From Escherichia coli 042 (GTDB lineage Bacteria; Pseudomonadota; Gammaproteobacteria; Enterobacterales; Enterobacteriaceae): a stretch of DNA of 64,000 nt. Both the position numbers and the translations under genes were made by a program. Where the stretch lies: assembly GCF_000027125.1 (NCBI RefSeq), contig NC_017626.1; one strand, 5' to 3'. The notes beneath the pieces were generated by a model, which was not told the origin of the DNA, did not search any database, and was given only the letters and a program-made list of their open reading frames with translations. Below, piece by piece: positions 5,462-13,845 of this stretch; the first letter of the stretch is position 1, and each line of letters starts with the position of its first letter.

Positions 5462-8257
5462 TTATTTTGGCAATAATACTCCGGTATAGGTATTCACCGG
5501 ATGAGAAAGATATTGTTTAACGGCAGTGTTAACATTCTCTACCGTCATTTGTTTCAATAATTGCTCCTGCTCAGTCCATGCTGCAGGATCGTCATATTGA
5601 ATAAGACTATTTACAATGGTGTTCGCTAATTGTTGAACGCTACGCTGTTGGATATCGAGGCTGCGCTGAACGTTTTGCTGGTATTCGTTCAGTTCTTGCT
5701 CACTGATCCCTTTAGCCAGACGCTTAACCATCACTTCATTCGCTAACGTTAACAGTTCATCATGTCGTTCCGGTTGACAAGTAAAAGCCAGCAAATGACT
5801 GATATCTTTGGCCTGAGGATCAACCGAGAGGCGAGAAGAAACGCTGTATGCCCCAGAGGCCTGTTCACGAATATTAACGCGTAGATCTTTTGCCAGTGCG
5901 ACGTTAAAAGCATCGAGCGCCATACGCGTCTCCAGATTAACCGGTGTCCGGGAATCATAACGCTTCCACTGTGAAACCTGTGCCACAGGTTCATTTTGTT
6001 CTTTTACAGTAACCGATGCGTTGTCCGTCGCGCGAGTTAATGGTTTACCTGCGGCTAATGGCGAATCAGAGTGTTTGATTGATCCTAAGTAAAGCGTAAT
6101 TAACGGCAGGAGTTTGTCTTCTGCGACATTACCGACAATGACAAACGTGATATCCGCTGGAGATGAAAACAACTGGCGATCGGCAGCCAGCGCATCTGCG
6201 GCAGTAAACTGTGCAATCTGATTTTCTTGCAGTAATTTCGTGCGGTCATCAGCATAGCGCGTCTCATACATCTGCTGGGCGAATTTCTCCGCTGGACGCT
6301 GGTCGAGCGTTTTCAACGCCTGAATTTGAGCATTTTGTAGCGATGCCCAAATATTATCGTTAATCGTGCTGTGGGTGATTCGCTGGTTAATCAACTGGAA
6401 ACCAGGTTCAGGGTTATTAGTCCGCGCGCTAACAGAGAGCAATGTATTCATGCCACTGACTTTACTGCTCAAGGTTACCGAGTTTTCCGCACTCCAGCGT
6501 TTCAGGCTGGAAGAGGAGAGTTCACCAACGCCGCTTCCGCTTACTGCTTTATTTGCCAGCGCGATAAGTGATTTTTGCTGCGCAGGGAAACTTAAATCGC
6601 CTTTATAAGATACGGCAGTAATTTGTAGCTTTTGCTCTTCACCCGCGGATTTTGCCAGAATAACCCTGGCACCATTGGAAAGTGTTAATGATGTCAGATT
6701 CTCAGCCAGCGTTTCTTTGCTGCTAATTTCCGCCTGTGGGTCAGCGTCTACTGTTAACGATAAATTTCTGCCTGGGAAGATGTAAGCCGCCAGCTTTTTG
6801 TTGGCGTACTCTTTTTCCAGCGCCAGGATAGCCGCAGGAGACAATGCTTTTTTGGCAGCAACCTCATTGTTTACCATTTGCTCCCAAAATGCATCCTGGT
6901 TCTTTCTTAACTGCTGCCATTTTTCCGCCAGACTTTGCACGGTAATTTGCTGCCACAGACGTTTCGAAAGTTGATATGTCTCTTCCGGCGACAAGAACGG
7001 CGTATTATTTAATGAGCTGGATGCCAGGCGACTGGTCAGCATACGTAAATCACGTTCAGCTTGCTGATCAACCGCATTTTTCAGCCAGGTGAGGCGGGTA
7101 GATTTGACATCATCGAGTTCTTCAGCAGAAAAACCATGCTGATCAATAGTTGCCAACTCTGCCATTAATGCATTCGCAGCATCCTGCATATTATCGTCTC
7201 GTGCATTTACACGGAAAAACAGCGACTGATAATCGGGTGCAATTTTAACGCTGCGCGCAGTGCCGCCAGAAATAGTCTTCAACTCGCCCGACTGTATGCG
7301 TTCCTGCAGACGCTGATTGAACAGCTGAACCAACATGCTCCATTCAGCTTGTTCGATAAAGCTTTGCTCATCGCTCACTTGCACCATTGGCAGGCGATAA
7401 TAGAGTGCGATGCCGTTCACCCGGTTTTCTTTATCATTAATGATATTAAAGCGCAGGTGGTTTTCGGCTTTTGTCGGCCAGACGCGATTTTCAGCTGCTT
7501 TGTTAGCCGGAAGCTTACTTAAATTATCCTTAATCAGCGCCAGCGCTTCTTTACTGTCGATATCGCCGACCACGATAAAGGTCATATTATTTGGTTGATA
7601 CCAGCGTTGATAAAATTGGCGCAATTGTGCCGGTGTGACCGTAGCGACAGTATCCATCACGCCGATAGGTTCACGGTCTAAATTACGGGTATTTGCCAGC
7701 AGGAAAGGGCGGCGCGCCTGAGAGGTGCGCCATTTCGCATCCTGATGGGCACGCCATTCCTCAGTAATTACGCCGCGTTCAGCGTCTACTTCGAGTTTTT
7801 CAAAGCTTGCGGCATTACTCCATTCACTAAAGATTGCCATCACTTGTTGCAGATTTTGTTTCTGCGTAGTCGGCAAACTCACCTGATACACCGTTTCGTC
7901 ATAGCTGGTATAGGCATTAACATCGCGACCAAAACGCAGGCCCATTGACTCAAATGTTTCGATGACTTTATTACCCGGCCATGTTTTTGTGCCGTTAAAC
8001 ATCATATGTTCTACAAAATGAGCCACGCCGCGCTCATTGTCCTCTTCCTGCAATGAACCGGTATGAATTTGCAGCCATAAATTTACCTGATCCTTTGGTT
8101 GAGCATGCGGATAAATCATATATCGCAAGCCATTGTCCAGTTGCCCGGTAATTAACTTTTCATCCTGCGGTAAGGCGGCGGCAATCAGTCGCCCGGGGAG
8201 CAACAGAGTTGCCACTAACGTCAGTAAGAAACAGAGGTTTCTCATAATTATCTCCAT
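5462..8257 (-). CDS. pqqL: M16-family zinc metallopeptidase PqqL
   Basis: HxxEH zinc motif (HFVEH) near the N-terminus; ~931 aa; start chosen at MEIIMRNLCF (track ORF begins 5 codons earlier). Confidence 0.88.
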   Translation of the reverse strand: MEIIMRNLCFLLTLVATLLLPGRLIAAALPQDEKLITGQLDNGLRYMIYPHAQPKDQVNLWLQIHTGSLQEEDNERGVAHFVEHMMFNGTKTWPGNKVIETFESMGLRFGRDVNAYTSYDETVYQVSLPTTQKQNLQQVMAIFSEWSNAASFEKLEVDAERGVITEEWRAHQDAKWRTSQARRPFLLANTRNLDREPIGVMDTVATVTPAQLRQFYQRWYQPNNMTFIVVGDIDSKEALALIKDNLSKLPANKAAENRVWPTKAENHLRFNIINDKENRVNGIALYYRLPMVQVSDEQSFIEQAEWSMLVQLFNQRLQERIQSGELKTISGGTARSVKIAPDYQSLFFRVNARDDNMQDAANALMAELATIDQHGFSAEELDDVKSTRLTWLKNAVDQQAERDLRMLTSRLASSSLNNTPFLSPEETYQLSKRLWQQITVQSLAEKWQQLRKNQDAFWEQMVNNEVAAKKALSPAAILALEKEYANKKLAAYIFPGRNLSLTVDADPQAEISSKETLAENLTSLTLSNGARVILAKSAGEEQKLQITAVSYKGDLSFPAQQKSLIALANKAVSGSGVGELSSSSLKRWSAENSVTLSSKVSGMNTLLSVSARTNNPEPGFQLINQRITHSTINDNIWASLQNAQIQALKTLDQRPAEKFAQQMYETRYADDRTKLLQENQIAQFTAADALAADRQLFSSPADITFVIVGNVAEDKLLPLITLYLGSIKHSDSPLAAGKPLTRATDNASVTVKEQNEPVAQVSQWKRYDSRTPVNLETRMALDAFNVALAKDLRVNIREQASGAYSVSSRLSVDPQAKDISHLLAFTCQPERHDELLTLANEVMVKRLAKGISEQELNEYQQNVQRSLDIQQRSVQQLANTIVNSLIQYDDPAAWTEQEQLLKQMTVENVNTAVKQYLSHPVNTYTGVLLPK

Positions 8258-8301
8258 GCGAAAACCGGGCAAATTTACCCGGTTAAGTAAAATCCGAACT
8301 A

Positions 8302-10674
8302 TTAAAATTTCATGCTGACATCAAGCCAGAAAGTACGGCCACTGGCGTAGGTCGCCACACCGGTATTCGTTGTATCAACCGCGGTTTTGCTATCCAGTAC
8401 ATTGAGAATATCGGCACTGATCGTCAGGTTTTGTTGTTTCAGAAATTGTGGCGTCCAGGACAAGCGGGTGTCCCAGGTCAGGCTGCTATCCAGTTTTTCG
8501 TCAACATACTGCTTGTAATCTGAATATTCGCTGATGTATTGCGCATTCGTCTTACCCAGGATAATGCGAGCTTTACGCGCTTCTTGCCAGGTCAGCGTAT
8601 TCGCCCACACCAACCCGCTCGGTTGATGCGTGAAATCCATGTTTAAGGAGATCTTTAGTGGATTATTAAAATCCGCCACTGGAACGCTATCGTAAGAGAC
8701 CAGATTACCGTTATAAACCACCCGGTTATCACCGGTATTGCTCTCCTCATAACCATTGTTTAACGACAAGTTGCCCTTGCTCTTGATATAGCTAAAGACA
8801 ATTTGCGGGTTAATATCTACCTGGCTGATATGCAGGGGTTCGGCCAGTTCAAAACTGAGGTTGAACGAATGCGTTTTGGTTTTGCCGTCGTTGTTATATT
8901 CAGTAATGGTGGTTTTAGTCGCGCTGTCGGTACGACTGCTTTTGCTGATTTGATCATGCGCTTCACGGTAAACATAGTTTGCGCGCGCAATAACGTTCTT
9001 ACCGATTTTTTGCTGCAATCCCATTGCCAGTTCATCGTTATAAGGCGTTTTCAAATCCTGATAACGCGTCAGGGTTTTATTGCCTGATACCGATTCCGTC
9101 CAGCTATTGCGGATATCACGTAATCCCATATCAAGAATATTCCCGCCATAGTAACGGTTATAACCGGCGGTAATCATTGAGGTTTGATCAGCAAAAATAT
9201 CCCATTCCGTCATAAAGCGCGGGGAGATATTGTGGTTTGACAGATAGTTGTCATAGTCATACCGCACGCCGGGCATTAATGACACATTACGCCAGCTAAT
9301 ACGATCCGCCATATACAGCGTGTAGTTGTCAATTCCCAGGCTGCCTTTACCTTTATGGTAAATGGTATGGTTAGTTTTCTTTCCGGCAGCATTAATCACA
9401 TAGGATTCAGACTGGTTATGGCGTTCAGTCCATGCATCGGAATAGATGTATTCCGCGCCGAAGTAGGGTTGATGCGAAACATTACCCACGGTGAATTTTT
9501 GCCAGTCCAGGCGTGTTTTGAAGGTGTAATTATCTACAGCCTGGGAAATGTGTCCTAATCCGCCACGGGTGCAACGCCCTGTAATATCACCATATGTACA
9601 TGAAAGTTCGGTGTACCAGATGTCATGATCGTGACGGGTATAATCACTAATATGATCCCAACCAACGGTGGTACGTAGTTTGGCCCATGCGAGCTGCGTA
9701 TCCATATCCCATGCCAGACCGTAGGATTTATTACCCATTTCGCGATCAGACTGCGGGAAGGTGCTGGTATTATAATCACGACTGGAGCCGGTATATTTTA
9801 ATGTTAAATCGTGGGTAAAGCGGTCGCTGGCAAACCAGGTAAATTTGCTCACTGCGGTATCGATAACGTTTTTATACTGTGCCCGACCGGCGACAATGCC
9901 GTCATTCGAAACATAATCCGCGCGGGTGATATCAGACTGGCGGCGCGATAAACCGGCGGTAACGCCGAAGTTATCAGCGAGTTCCTGATTAAACGCCAAA
10001 GTATAAAAGTTCTTTTTAAAATCTGGAGAGTAATAAGTACTTCCTGAAGAACCTTGATTAAATGCGCTCTTGTTATTCTCATCGATATGCGATGTTAACC
10101 AGTCCGAACGCGTAGTGCGATAACCCAGTTCCACGCTGCTATCATCAGCATTGAAGCGTTTGATCTTTGCATCAATTACCCCGCCATTGAAGCGACCAAA
10201 TTCAACCGGCACAAAACTGTCATAAAGCGTCACATTGTCCAGTAAGCTGACATCTAGATAATACCCCTGTGACATCCCGCTAATATTGGTTGCACTACTG
10301 GCATCGGACTCATTCGCTGGGTTCAGGTTATTAGTTGCACTAATACCATCAATCAAATAGGCATTCTGGTAGGGCGACGCACCGTGAATAGAGATTTTCT
10401 CCGGGCGAATATCTCCCTGGTTCAACGAGGTACTTTGCGTTGAATCCATGCGCACAGCAGGGTTGGTTCTCAGCAGATCGCTGATATTGCCATTCCCGGT
10501 CGGTAAACGCTCGATGCTTTCACTGGTGTAATGCGTATTGCCGTTTACGGGTACAGGGACAGGAGCATAGACCGTCATCTCTTCAAAAACATGCATGTAC
10601 ATGTTTTTGTCATCGACGGCCTGCGCCACATCAGCGCCACATAAAATGACGCCAGGAATAAGAACTCGCTTCAT
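8302..10674 (-). CDS. yddB: TonB-dependent outer-membrane receptor YddB
   Basis: 790-aa ORF with signal peptide and C-terminal aromatic residue (…LDVSMKF); sits between pqqL and yddA. Confidence 0.88.
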   Translation of the reverse strand: MKRVLIPGVILCGADVAQAVDDKNMYMHVFEEMTVYAPVPVPVNGNTHYTSESIERLPTGNGNISDLLRTNPAVRMDSTQSTSLNQGDIRPEKISIHGASPYQNAYLIDGISATNNLNPANESDASSATNISGMSQGYYLDVSLLDNVTLYDSFVPVEFGRFNGGVIDAKIKRFNADDSSVELGYRTTRSDWLTSHIDENNKSAFNQGSSGSTYYSPDFKKNFYTLAFNQELADNFGVTAGLSRRQSDITRADYVSNDGIVAGRAQYKNVIDTAVSKFTWFASDRFTHDLTLKYTGSSRDYNTSTFPQSDREMGNKSYGLAWDMDTQLAWAKLRTTVGWDHISDYTRHDHDIWYTELSCTYGDITGRCTRGGLGHISQAVDNYTFKTRLDWQKFTVGNVSHQPYFGAEYIYSDAWTERHNQSESYVINAAGKKTNHTIYHKGKGSLGIDNYTLYMADRISWRNVSLMPGVRYDYDNYLSNHNISPRFMTEWDIFADQTSMITAGYNRYYGGNILDMGLRDIRNSWTESVSGNKTLTRYQDLKTPYNDELAMGLQQKIGKNVIARANYVYREAHDQISKSSRTDSATKTTITEYNNDGKTKTHSFNLSFELAEPLHISQVDINPQIVFSYIKSKGNLSLNNGYEESNTGDNRVVYNGNLVSYDSVPVADFNNPLKISLNMDFTHQPSGLVWANTLTWQEARKARIILGKTNAQYISEYSDYKQYVDEKLDSSLTWDTRLSWTPQFLKQQNLTISADILNVLDSKTAVDTTNTGVATYASGRTFWLDVSMKF

Positions 10675-10702
10675 TTATTTTTATCTCCGTACAGCAGGGC
10701 TT

Positions 10703-12397
10703 TTATTGTTTTTTTAAAACCGCGCTAATGTCACAAATATCATCGGCCAGGTTCCAGACACCGGGTTGATGTGTAACCATAATGACGCCGCTTGAGGGTA
10801 GTTTTTCACGCACTAAACGCAGTAAGCGGATAGCCTCTTGTTCCTCAAAATGAGAGGTAGTTTCGTCAAGAAATATCCATTTCGGACGTCGTAAAATTAA
10901 TCGTGCCAGCGCGATACGTTGTTTTTCGCCGCTGGAAAGAATATCGCCCCAGCGATCGTGGTCATGAATACGCGCAGCCAATTTCCCCAGACCAACCTGA
11001 TGCAGTACTTCGCTCAACGATTTATCGTCTACGGACAGGGGAAGTGCTTTACAAATTATCTCTTTCAGTAAGCCGGTTTTGATTAACGGTGTTTGTGACA
11101 CATACCAACTGTCAGCAGGAGAAGAAATATCACCTTTAAACCACGGCCAGCAGTGGGATAATGTTTTAAGCAGTGTGGTTTTTCCCGCACCTGAGTAACC
11201 TTTCAGTAATAGCCATTTGCCTGGCGAAACATGAAAGTTTAGGTTCTCTAATATGATCTTATTATCAGGAGTACGAATACTCGCGTCAGCCACTTGTACC
11301 GCATGTTGGCAATTTTTAGGCTTATTCGTAGGGCGCTGTTCGGTGAGTTGATGGAACTCATACAAGCGATCGATAACCGCAGCCAGTTCAGCAAGTTCAT
11401 CATATTTATAAATAAACCAGCTTAAATTGTTCGATACCAGCATAAATGCCTGGCGCGATTTCATCAGTCCGCCCAGATTGATCTGTCCGCTAATAAACTG
11501 CGGCAATAACAGAAAGTAGGGAAGAACGCTAAGCGAGCGCGAATAAATATTCTGCCAGTAATCAAGCCACCGCTGACGATTCATTAAACGATGCCAGTTA
11601 TCTTTAATGGTATGAAAATTGTCGCTCAACTCCTGGCGTTGTAGAGACTCAGCATTGCTTAGCGCAATCAGTTCAGCCTGCTTATTATGCTGCACAAGAT
11701 TAGTTCGAAATGTCGCTTCGCTACGTTGTTTTTCCACATTAAGCGGACGAATACGTTTACCAACCTTATGAGTAAATAAAGTTCCACCGATCACAATGAG
11801 CACGACGGTATAGACCATATACCCCTGGATATTCCATTCTGTTCCACCAACAGTGAATGAGAGCGTACCCGCGCTTTGCCAAAGAATAACGGTAAAGGTG
11901 ATCAACATGCTAAGTGACTGGATGAAGCCAAATGAAAGACTGAGCGTTTTGCTGATCAGTAAGAGAATGTCTTCAGCGATACGTTGGTCAGGGTTATCTG
12001 TATTTTTATGCTCACCGTAGATCTGCGTGAAGTAGTAGTTTTTATCTGCAAACCAGCGATTAAGGTAGTAATCTGTTAACCATTCGCGCCAGCGAATAGT
12101 CAGTAGTTTAATTAACCATGTTTTGTTTACGGATATTAATACAAAGATCCCCAGCAGGGCAGGGAACCAAAGGACAAGCTGCCAAAGCTTATCGGTTTCT
12201 TTCTGGCTTAGCGCATTGAAAAAATCATTATTCCAGTCGTTTAACCAGACCTGAATTTTAACCACGCCAAGGATCATGGCGAGGATAATAATGATTAACA
12301 GCACTGAAGTTTTATTATTCTTACGCAGCCAAAAGGGCTTCAGCAGACAGAGATACTTTGCTATCAACATACGAAACGTAATGGGAATGGTTATCAT
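10703..12397 (-). CDS. yddA: ABC transporter, fused permease and ATPase (SbmA/BacA-like), YddA
   Basis: N-terminal TM region plus Walker A GYSGAGKT and signature LSSGEKQR; the exact start codon is uncertain by a few codons. Confidence 0.85.
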   Translation of the reverse strand: MITIPITFRMLIAKYLCLLKPFWLRKNNKTSVLLIIIILAMILGVVKIQVWLNDWNNDFFNALSQKETDKLWQLVLWFPALLGIFVLISVNKTWLIKLLTIRWREWLTDYYLNRWFADKNYYFTQIYGEHKNTDNPDQRIAEDILLLISKTLSLSFGFIQSLSMLITFTVILWQSAGTLSFTVGGTEWNIQGYMVYTVVLIVIGGTLFTHKVGKRIRPLNVEKQRSEATFRTNLVQHNKQAELIALSNAESLQRQELSDNFHTIKDNWHRLMNRQRWLDYWQNIYSRSLSVLPYFLLLPQFISGQINLGGLMKSRQAFMLVSNNLSWFIYKYDELAELAAVIDRLYEFHQLTEQRPTNKPKNCQHAVQVADASIRTPDNKIILENLNFHVSPGKWLLLKGYSGAGKTTLLKTLSHCWPWFKGDISSPADSWYVSQTPLIKTGLLKEIICKALPLSVDDKSLSEVLHQVGLGKLAARIHDHDRWGDILSSGEKQRIALARLILRRPKWIFLDETTSHFEEQEAIRLLRLVREKLPSSGVIMVTHQPGVWNLADDICDISAVLKKQ

Positions 12398-12420
12398 TAG
12401 CGAAAATTGATTGTGCCATC

Positions 12421-12445
12421 CAATGATTATCTATGGCAATGATTT
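12421..12445. promoter_or_regulatory. Candidate Fur box in the yddA-yddB-pqqL promoter
   Basis: caATGATtATCtatggcAATGATtt, 24 to 48 bp upstream of the yddA start, resembles the Fur consensus GATAATGATAATCATTATC; the operon encodes a TonB-dependent receptor. Confidence 0.35.
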
Positions 12446-12687
12446 ACTGATGAAATTTATTTAAGTGTCATTTAACATTTTGAAATATAAAGAAATTTTT
12501 TATTTTCAATGGTTACGATTATGCTATTGATAATCAAGGGTATTGCTAATGCCCTGACGCATGCCACGTAAGCCAGAATTTTCGCAAGGGAAGATGATGA
12601 TGACGAAACACCCAACAGGAATTTATGTCGGGTGCTTTGTTAAGGTCATAAGACGGAGGCTAAGACTGGAGCAAAGAAGGAGCGTTA

Positions 12688-13845
12688 TTAATTATTCTCC
12701 ATTTGTTTTGCAACATCCATAATGTGGTAAAGCGGTACTCTGTTCTTGGCTAACTCCACCATGGCGTTCATATAAGGTACCATGGTTGAAAAAAGGATTT
12801 TATAACCTTCGCAAAAATAGGAAACAGTCTCATTGTTTACTTTAGTAATACGATGCTTAGGGCAACCGCCATTGCAGATAGGTTTATATGCACATTGCTG
12901 ACATTTCGCTGAAATCCGTTTTTTTTGCGCTGTCAGTTGTACACTGTTCATCGTTTTAAGTTCAGATTTATTAATGTTTCCAATTTTGTACTGTGGATAG
13001 ACAAAATGGTCGCATTCGTAAATGTCTCCATTACTTTCAACAACCAGATTATCCTTGCAGGACTCCTGGAAAATACAACTGGTATGCCCATTCCCCAAAA
13101 AACGGCTGACAAAACTTTCAAACTGACGGATGAAAATTTCACCCACATCGTTTTTAACCCATTGCATAAAAATGGTCGACATAAACTTGCCATAAGCCGT
13201 AGGAGGCACAGAAAAATCAATGATACGGAATGTGTTCTCACTATGACCACTGAAATCAATATTCGGCGTCCCGGTTTCGAGCAATTCGATAAATTGCATA
13301 TGTTTACTGCCGATAGATTTTAAAAAATGATAAACCTCAAGAGGGTAATGGACATTAACGTTATTAATGACGGTTAACGTATTAAACTCTACTTGATATG
13401 ATTTCAGACGCTCGATGGCTGCTATCACTTTTGCAAAAGTACCGTTACCAGAATTACTGCGTCTGTAACGGTCATGTAGCTCCTGGGGTCCATCGATCGA
13501 GATACCAACCAGAAACTCATGTTCTTTGAGAAAGGCACACCATTCATTATTCAATAAAATGCCATTCGTTTGTAATGCATTAAAAATACGTTTTTGGCCT
13601 GCATAGCGTTGTTGATAGTGAATAACTTTACGGAAAAAATCCAGACCAGCCAGAGTGGGTTCACCGCCTTGCCACGTAAAATAGACCTGATTGCCAGACG
13701 CTGCGATATATTGTTTGATGAACTCTTTCAGAGTGCTGTCATCCATCCATTTTTCATGAGTAAACTGCGACTCTTTTTCAAGGTAAAAACAGTAATCACA
13801 TTTGAGATTACATTGAAAACTGGAGGGCTTGGCTGTAACGTGCAT
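12688..13845 (-). CDS. ydeM: Radical-SAM anaerobic sulfatase-maturating enzyme homolog
   Basis: CNLKCDYC (CX3CX2C) radical-SAM motif at the N-terminus and a C-terminal Cys-rich SPASM-like region ([18 protein letters not shown]); start taken at MHVTAKP. Confidence 0.85.

Follow-up and report, generated by a model that had tools for sequence, protein, structure and literature searches.

Results and discussion

The yddA-yddB-pqqL operon and its Fur-dependent expression

The DNA analysed here is a stretch of 64 kb from Escherichia coli 042 (hereafter the window), in which open reading frames, Pfam domains and annotation define the following genes:

5462..12397, minus strand: yddA-yddB-pqqL operon
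10703..12397, minus strand: yddA, with the Pfam domains ABC_membrane_2/SbmA_BacA and ABC_tran
12395..12397, minus strand: yddA start codon, the same start being annotated in CFT073 and MG1655
8302..10674, minus strand: yddB, with the Pfam domain Plug (TonB-dependent receptor)
5462..8272, minus strand: pqqL, with the Pfam domain Peptidase_M16
12597-12722, plus strand: yneP, a small open reading frame, divergent from yddA, in the interval between yddA and ydeM, whose 3' end it overlaps; it is annotated in K-12 and in many further strains

Among 5,426 complete genomes, 5,349 carry the region, and its sequence in the window is 100% identical to that of E. coli strain 118UI. The Pfam assignments bear out the ABC transporter, the TonB-dependent receptor and the M16 peptidase that an initial annotation of this DNA had listed as the operon products. 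It described YddA as an exporter, but import is at least as likely, since the SbmA_BacA and ABC_membrane_2 families include importers of peptides and cofactors and since the protein corresponding to YddA in Pectobacterium is part of an uptake system.

That Fur controls yddAB-pqqL has been on record since 2003; a prediction of the operator followed in 2007, and its mapping by ChIP-exo and ChIP-seq between 2014 and 2023. The operon was listed as Fur-regulated in the macroarray study of McHugh 2003, as cited in PMC3855560. In CFT073, deletion of fur raises how strongly yddA, yddB and pqqL are expressed (PMC3855560), and the derepression measured without Fur in this strain is about 52-fold (PMC7157518, Tables S1/S5). 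Log2 fold changes of 1.9-6.9 were reported in eight strains by Gao 2023 (PMC10164565), and the PqqL protein is induced by the iron chelator bipyridine (Grinter 2019, PMC6793856). Taken together, fur-mutant derepression, Fur binding and chelator induction are in agreement with the iron-responsive control that had been suggested for the operon from its gene content: Fur control is real, with an 8- to 120-fold derepression in fur mutants. These expression data concern the operon as a whole and cannot distinguish the promoter element flagged by the initial annotation from the main Fur box described below. The small RNA RyhB is also reported to raise the yddA mRNA level (PMC4676285).

The flagged element is part of the yddA promoter

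The initial annotation had pointed to a Fur-box-like element upstream of yddA. The 25-mer caatgattatctatggcaatgattt is found at 12421-12445 exactly as quoted, as a minus-strand element, and it was correctly placed, at 24 to 48 bp upstream of the start codon, since the yddA reading frame (minus strand) begins at 12397. The features of the promoter are the following:

12434..12439, minus strand: TTGCCA, the -35 hexamer of the sigma-70 promoter of yddA, identical in the six Escherichia sequences compared
12410..12418, minus strand: extended -10 (TGn-CACAAT), with an 18-bp spacer between its hexamer and the -35, and invariant in the same six sequences
12403 (±1 nt), minus strand: yddA transcription start site, with the -10 hexamer 7 nt upstream and the ATG 6 nt downstream
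12421..12445, minus strand: flagged element, taking in the -35 hexamer and the greater part of the spacer of the yddA promoter (-42 to -18)

The transcription start was taken from SMRT-Cappable-seq, where Supplementary Data 2 places a reverse-strand start of b1496 at 1579348 (PMC6131387), and was transferred to the window through the MG1655 yddA start at 1579342 and an alignment free of indels; this position comes from one high-throughput data set, has T as its start base and is possibly off by 1 nt. The mapped start fixes the promoter, and the flagged element therefore corresponds to positions -42 to -18. The arrangement TTGCCA-18 bp-TGn-CACAAT matches 9 of the 12 hexamer bases in addition to the TG, has a spacing within the 16-18 bp of sigma-70 promoters, and was both the sole hit of a promoter scan and the top hit of a second scan of our own. 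Two other candidates, TTCATC-17 bp-GATAAT, which uses the hexamer of the flagged element as a -10, and TTAGCA-17 bp-TAGCAT, were rejected, as both scored lower and were mismatched with the mapped start.

With this start the yddA mRNA leader is only 6 nt long (UUCGCU) and carries no Shine-Dalgarno sequence, and the start codon lies under the Fur operator. An Rfam scan of 12100-12900 returned a single hit at chance level (E=0.38), far under the gathering score.

Apart from the promoter hexamer, the flagged element contains a single perfect GATAAT (12431..12426), whose in-frame neighbours GCCATA and CATTGG each agree with the Fur hexamer at 2 of 6 positions. It is this hexamer, together with the AT-richness of the interval, that makes the element slightly Fur-box-like. 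The octamer CAATGATT occurs twice in the element, at 12421-12428 and 12437-12444, as an 8-bp direct repeat with copies 16 bp apart; repetition at this level is not significant in the element (5 repeated 6-mers observed for 1.8 expected, P=0.085).

Scoring with a Fur matrix

A symmetric Fur matrix in the 19-bp 9-1-9 register was built on 20 MG1655 Fur sites that have experimental support, yddA being left out, with the MG1655 sequence at the coordinates of Tables 3 and 4 of Chen 2007 (PMC2189734) as training DNA. Its consensus is AATGATAATCATTATCATT, and its scores track those of Chen, with 28.4 vs 27.4 bits for gpmA, 18.8 vs 17.6 for fecA and 13.1 vs 12.3 for fur. The training sites score 11-28 bits in their own matrix. 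Applied to the 63,982 positions of the window, the matrix gave the following sites around the yddA start:

12380..12404, no strand assigned: Fur operator, two overlapping 19-bp sites 6 bp apart, covering -1 to +24 of the transcript
12380-12398 (centre 12389): main Fur site, 19.3 bits, the best of the 63,982 positions in 64 kb
12386-12404 (centre 12395): partner Fur site, 8.0 bits, 6 bp from the main site
12422-12440 (centre 12431): best site within the flagged element, 3.8 bits, rank 46 of 63,982 positions

The flagged element falls below the scores of validated sites, which begin at about 11 bits, and this holds at every pseudocount tried (3.8-8.5 bits vs a training minimum of 11.1-11.7 bits). 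It combines one good half-site (ATAATCATT) with a poor partner (ATTGCCATA), and shows neither three or more adjacent NAT(A/T)AT hexamers nor a good 7-1-7 inverted repeat. When two dimers are scored together, the element obtains -1.1 vs 29.0 for the main box. The match to the classical consensus GATAATGATAATCATTATC had been called partial, and the top match at the element is 12/19 (12419-12437); matches of at least 12/19 occur at 122 positions of the 64-kb window. In dinucleotide-shuffled versions of the intergenic region, sites of at least 3.8 bits arise at 0.14 per 60 bp, and 47% of the shuffles hold at least one. The resemblance of the flagged element to a Fur box is no better than chance, and a low matrix score is the result that the initial annotation had itself named as speaking against its proposal.

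The operator at 12380-12404 does not overlap the flagged interval, which lies 17 bp upstream of the operator edge, and it overlies both the transcription start and the ATG of yddA. The classical 19-bp Fur box within it (12383-12401) agrees with the consensus at 15 of 19 positions. This site is already published: Table 4 of Chen 2007 lists a predicted yddA Fur site of 19.6 bits with its centre at +8 of the gene, with 2 sites over 25 bp (PMC2189734), and Subashchandrabose 2013 describes GGGAATGGTTATCATTAG as a putative Fur box that lies over the start codon of yddA (PMC3855560). The operator at 12380-12404 is the real yddA Fur site; the initial annotation was right in its regulatory idea and wrong in its site, having overlooked the box 17 bp downstream of the interval that it flagged.

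In vivo occupancy by Fur

To compare these predictions with Fur occupancy, published ChIP-exo peak coordinates were mapped onto the window. From -60 to +30 of yddA the window and MG1655 are identical and free of indels, so that the published MG1655 coordinates are directly transferable. The peaks use the old MG1655 numbering, which puts the yddA ATG at 1577366 and whose offset of 1976 was verified on sufA, yoeA and yddA. The MG1655 peaks of Dataset 2 of PMC10164565 were assigned by their coordinates with a correction for a shift of labels, the gene and transcription-unit labels of the MG1655 sheet being one row off relative to the coordinates from about P37 onward. In this sheet the row labelled yddA holds the adhP coordinates, the acnA label stands on coordinates of the tonB region, and the true yddA peaks are P46 and P47; reuse of the sheet by gene name would yield wrong coordinates.

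The MG1655 footprint at 1577347-1577374, from Seo 2014 as re-listed in that Dataset 2, maps to 12378-12405 of the window; it nearly exactly covers the cluster of two sites and ends 16 bp short of the flagged element. The 13-bp ChIP-exo peaks that Gao 2023 (PMC10164565) lists for four further strains lie within the main box with 13 (W3110), 11 (BL21(DE3)), 12 (ATCC 8739) and 12 (CFT073) of their 13 bp, at 29-52 bp from the flagged element. The Fur ChIP comparison that the initial annotation had proposed therefore places the signal of five strains on 12380-12404, at 16-52 bp from the flagged element, and no published ChIP-exo peak of these mapped strains (MG1655, W3110, BL21(DE3), ATCC 8739 and CFT073) lies over 12421-12445. 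With the score of 3.8 bits and the ChIP-exo signal on the neighbouring site instead, the proposal of a Fur box in the flagged element is not upheld.

Other data sets are in agreement with this location. The CFT073 Fur ChIP-seq of Banerjee 2020 has a summit at 1765013 with a peak height of 657 (PMC7157518, Tables S1/S5), one base from the yddA ATG of that genome at 1765014, and Beauchene 2015 found the region upstream of the yddA operon bound by Fur in MG1655 (PMC4676285). The listed Sakai ChIP-exo peak falls 136 bp from the box in NC_002695.2, probably owing to a difference of genome versions.

Conservation of the promoter and of the operator

Conservation was followed in six closely related Escherichia sequences, two divergent clades included. 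A contig scan for relatives recovered four close Escherichia loci, one homologue of 52% identity and distant ABC proteins, and the phylogenetic footprint across genera is therefore shallow. The promoter hexamers are conserved, TTGCCA and TGGCACAAT being invariant in the six sequences. The main box is kept at 18.8-19.3 bits in the divergent clades, with 18.8 bits even where two codons differ. The Fur-like bases of the flagged element are not conserved: Escherichia sp. MOD1-EC7003 has GACAAT and Escherichia sp. E1V33 has GTCAAT in place of GATAAT, and in these two of the six sequences the site of the element drops below 3 bits.

The homologue of 52% identity, from an Enterobacteriaceae metagenome bin, has a Fur box of 24.4 bits, 52 bp ahead of its reading frame, and this box indicates that Fur control of the gene family is kept despite a shifted site. 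The contig JARKOR010000108.1, filed under a bin of 'Candidatus Nanosynbacter sp.', carries a yddA of 99% identity with a promoter identical to that of E. coli, and is almost certainly misbinned E. coli DNA.

Other Fur-like sites in the window

Two further groups of weaker sites were found around the yddA start:

12284..12302, no strand assigned: secondary Fur-like site within yddA, at +104 from the ATG, 2.1 bits in the window
12508..12544, no strand assigned: weak Fur-like run upstream, with centres at 12517, 12523, 12529 and 12535 scoring 2.2, 1.6, 6.2 and 3.4 bits

The strength of the +104 site varies by lineage, from 2.1 bits here to 5.1 bits in the MG1655 type and 9.4-12.1 bits in other lineages of E. 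coli and Escherichia, and this variation arises through synonymous-type changes. The site overlaps the second MG1655 ChIP-exo peak of the locus (1577233-1577267, corresponding to 12264-12298 of the window). The four sites of the upstream run, which surround an 11-bp palindrome (TTGATAATCAA), are spaced by exactly 6 bp; they precede the transcription start of yddA by about 105-141 bp and the divergent yneP by about 55-90 bp. None of 1000 shuffles contained four phased positive sites, and P=0.03 was obtained for the summed bits. Among the reported MG1655 peaks there is no ChIP-exo peak at 12508-12544; Escherichia sp. E1V33 has an 11.3-bit site in the same zone.

Elsewhere in the window, the second-best site of the matrix (14.9 bits, AACAAGAATCATTCTTGAT) is found at 26317-26335, which is 27-45 bp upstream of a fimbrial major-subunit reading frame (25679..26290, minus strand, Pfam Fimbrial), after which come chaperone and usher genes. 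The distance of this site from the yddA site, +13,938 bp, matches the ChIP-exo peaks of E. coli W and Sakai described as 'fimA, intergenic, iron-replete', and because of this match the chaperone-usher fimbrial operon looks directly bound by Fur.

Proposed mechanism and alternative explanations

Most probably, the flagged bases constitute the upstream half of the sigma-70 core promoter of yddA and not a Fur operator, the iron control of the operon being exerted through 12380-12404. When iron is available, Fur-Fe2+ dimers occupy the operator from -1 to +24, a position overlapping the region required by RNA polymerase. From the geometry of the scored sites, the occupied region, the mapped start and the Fur-dependent expression we infer repression by occlusion, operator-bound Fur most likely blocking promoter escape or the formation of the open complex. 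Loss of either iron or Fur derepresses the operon by 8- to 120-fold.

Other readings of the flagged bases have to be weighed against this one. That the element is itself the Fur box through which iron controls yddA-yddB-pqqL would agree with the Fur repression of the operon and with an overlap with the -35 region, a frequent location of repressor sites; this reading is now extremely unlikely, having been largely refuted by the matrix, in which the element scores under all 20 validated sites, and the 19.3-bit site 17 bp downstream is the one that bears the ChIP signal in five strains. The element could also be a low-affinity auxiliary site, on which extra Fur dimers would spread in a 6-bp register over the -10 and -35 regions and tighten repression. 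Its score is positive at 3.8-8.5 bits depending on the pseudocount, its perfect GATAAT is in the frame of the main box, and its site lies at distances of 36 and 42 bp from those of the operator, in agreement with the 6-bp steps at which Fur sites cluster (Chen 2007, PMC2189734). A low score is moreover compatible with binding, as the weak +104 site, with 5.1 bits in the MG1655 type, coincides with a ChIP-exo peak. These points count against the core-promoter interpretation. On the other side, the hexamers in the gap, ATGGCA and CAATCA, are unlike Fur hexamers and no positive site bridges the element to the operator, the MG1655 footprint stops short of the element, its score is at chance level, and its Fur-like bases are the variable ones across Escherichia clades. 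We therefore regard an auxiliary role as rather unlikely.

A wider version of the same idea joins the flagged element, the operator, the +104 site and the cluster at 12508-12544 into a graded array of Fur sites over about 260 bp, in which the element, as a weak in-register site, would let Fur spread over the -35 region at high occupancy. Such an array seems distinctly improbable to us; if it existed, the iron threshold of yddAB-pqqL would differ from that of the classical siderophore genes, and it might help to explain the Fur dependence with little response to dipyridyl seen in CFT073. Finally, the repeat of CAATGATT might be the site of another regulator, acting on yddA or on the divergent small gene yneP. 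The 8-bp direct repeat is indeed present, but the repeat count is not significant and the second copy overlaps the -35 hexamer, which accounts for its conservation; we know of no regulator motif that fits it. The expression of the operon in CFT073 grown in urine, which goes beyond iron alone (PMC3855560), and the oxygen-dependent differences in strains lacking Fur (PMC4676285) could be read in favour of a second regulator, but one acting through this repeat is very improbable.

The anatomy of the promoter is thereby corrected, with an operator placed over both the start of transcription and the start codon, a -35 region and spacer in the flagged bases, and a leader of 6 nt. AT-rich core promoters can mimic Fur boxes, and matrix scoring of partial consensus matches should precede their interpretation.

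Comparison with known systems

The yddA promoter shares its layout, an extended -10 (TGn) with a weak -10 hexamer and a transcription start 7 nt downstream, with other sigma-70 promoters of this type, and no difference from them was found; its 6-nt leader lacking a Shine-Dalgarno sequence is unusual and irrelevant to the promoter call. As regards the gene products, YddB, PqqL and YddA are homologous to the FusA/FusC/FusD proteins of ferredoxin uptake in Pectobacterium (PMC6793856, PMC5095587), and in both systems a TonB-dependent receptor is combined with an M16 protease and an ABC protein under iron regulation. This likeness bears on the function of the operon and not on the flagged DNA element.

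The classical Fur operators (those of entC, fepA-fes, fhuA, cirA, fecA, sodA, ryhB and others), which constitute the training set, resemble the flagged element in being AT-rich, in holding a GATAAT-type hexamer and in lying at or beside a core promoter. They differ from it in strength and symmetry, with 11-28 bits and at least one good 7-1-7 inverted repeat, whereas the flagged element has 3.8 bits and one good half-site. The published yddA Fur site is reproduced by our matrix at 12380-12404, with the same gene, the same regulator and the same conclusion, namely that Fur represses yddAB-pqqL.
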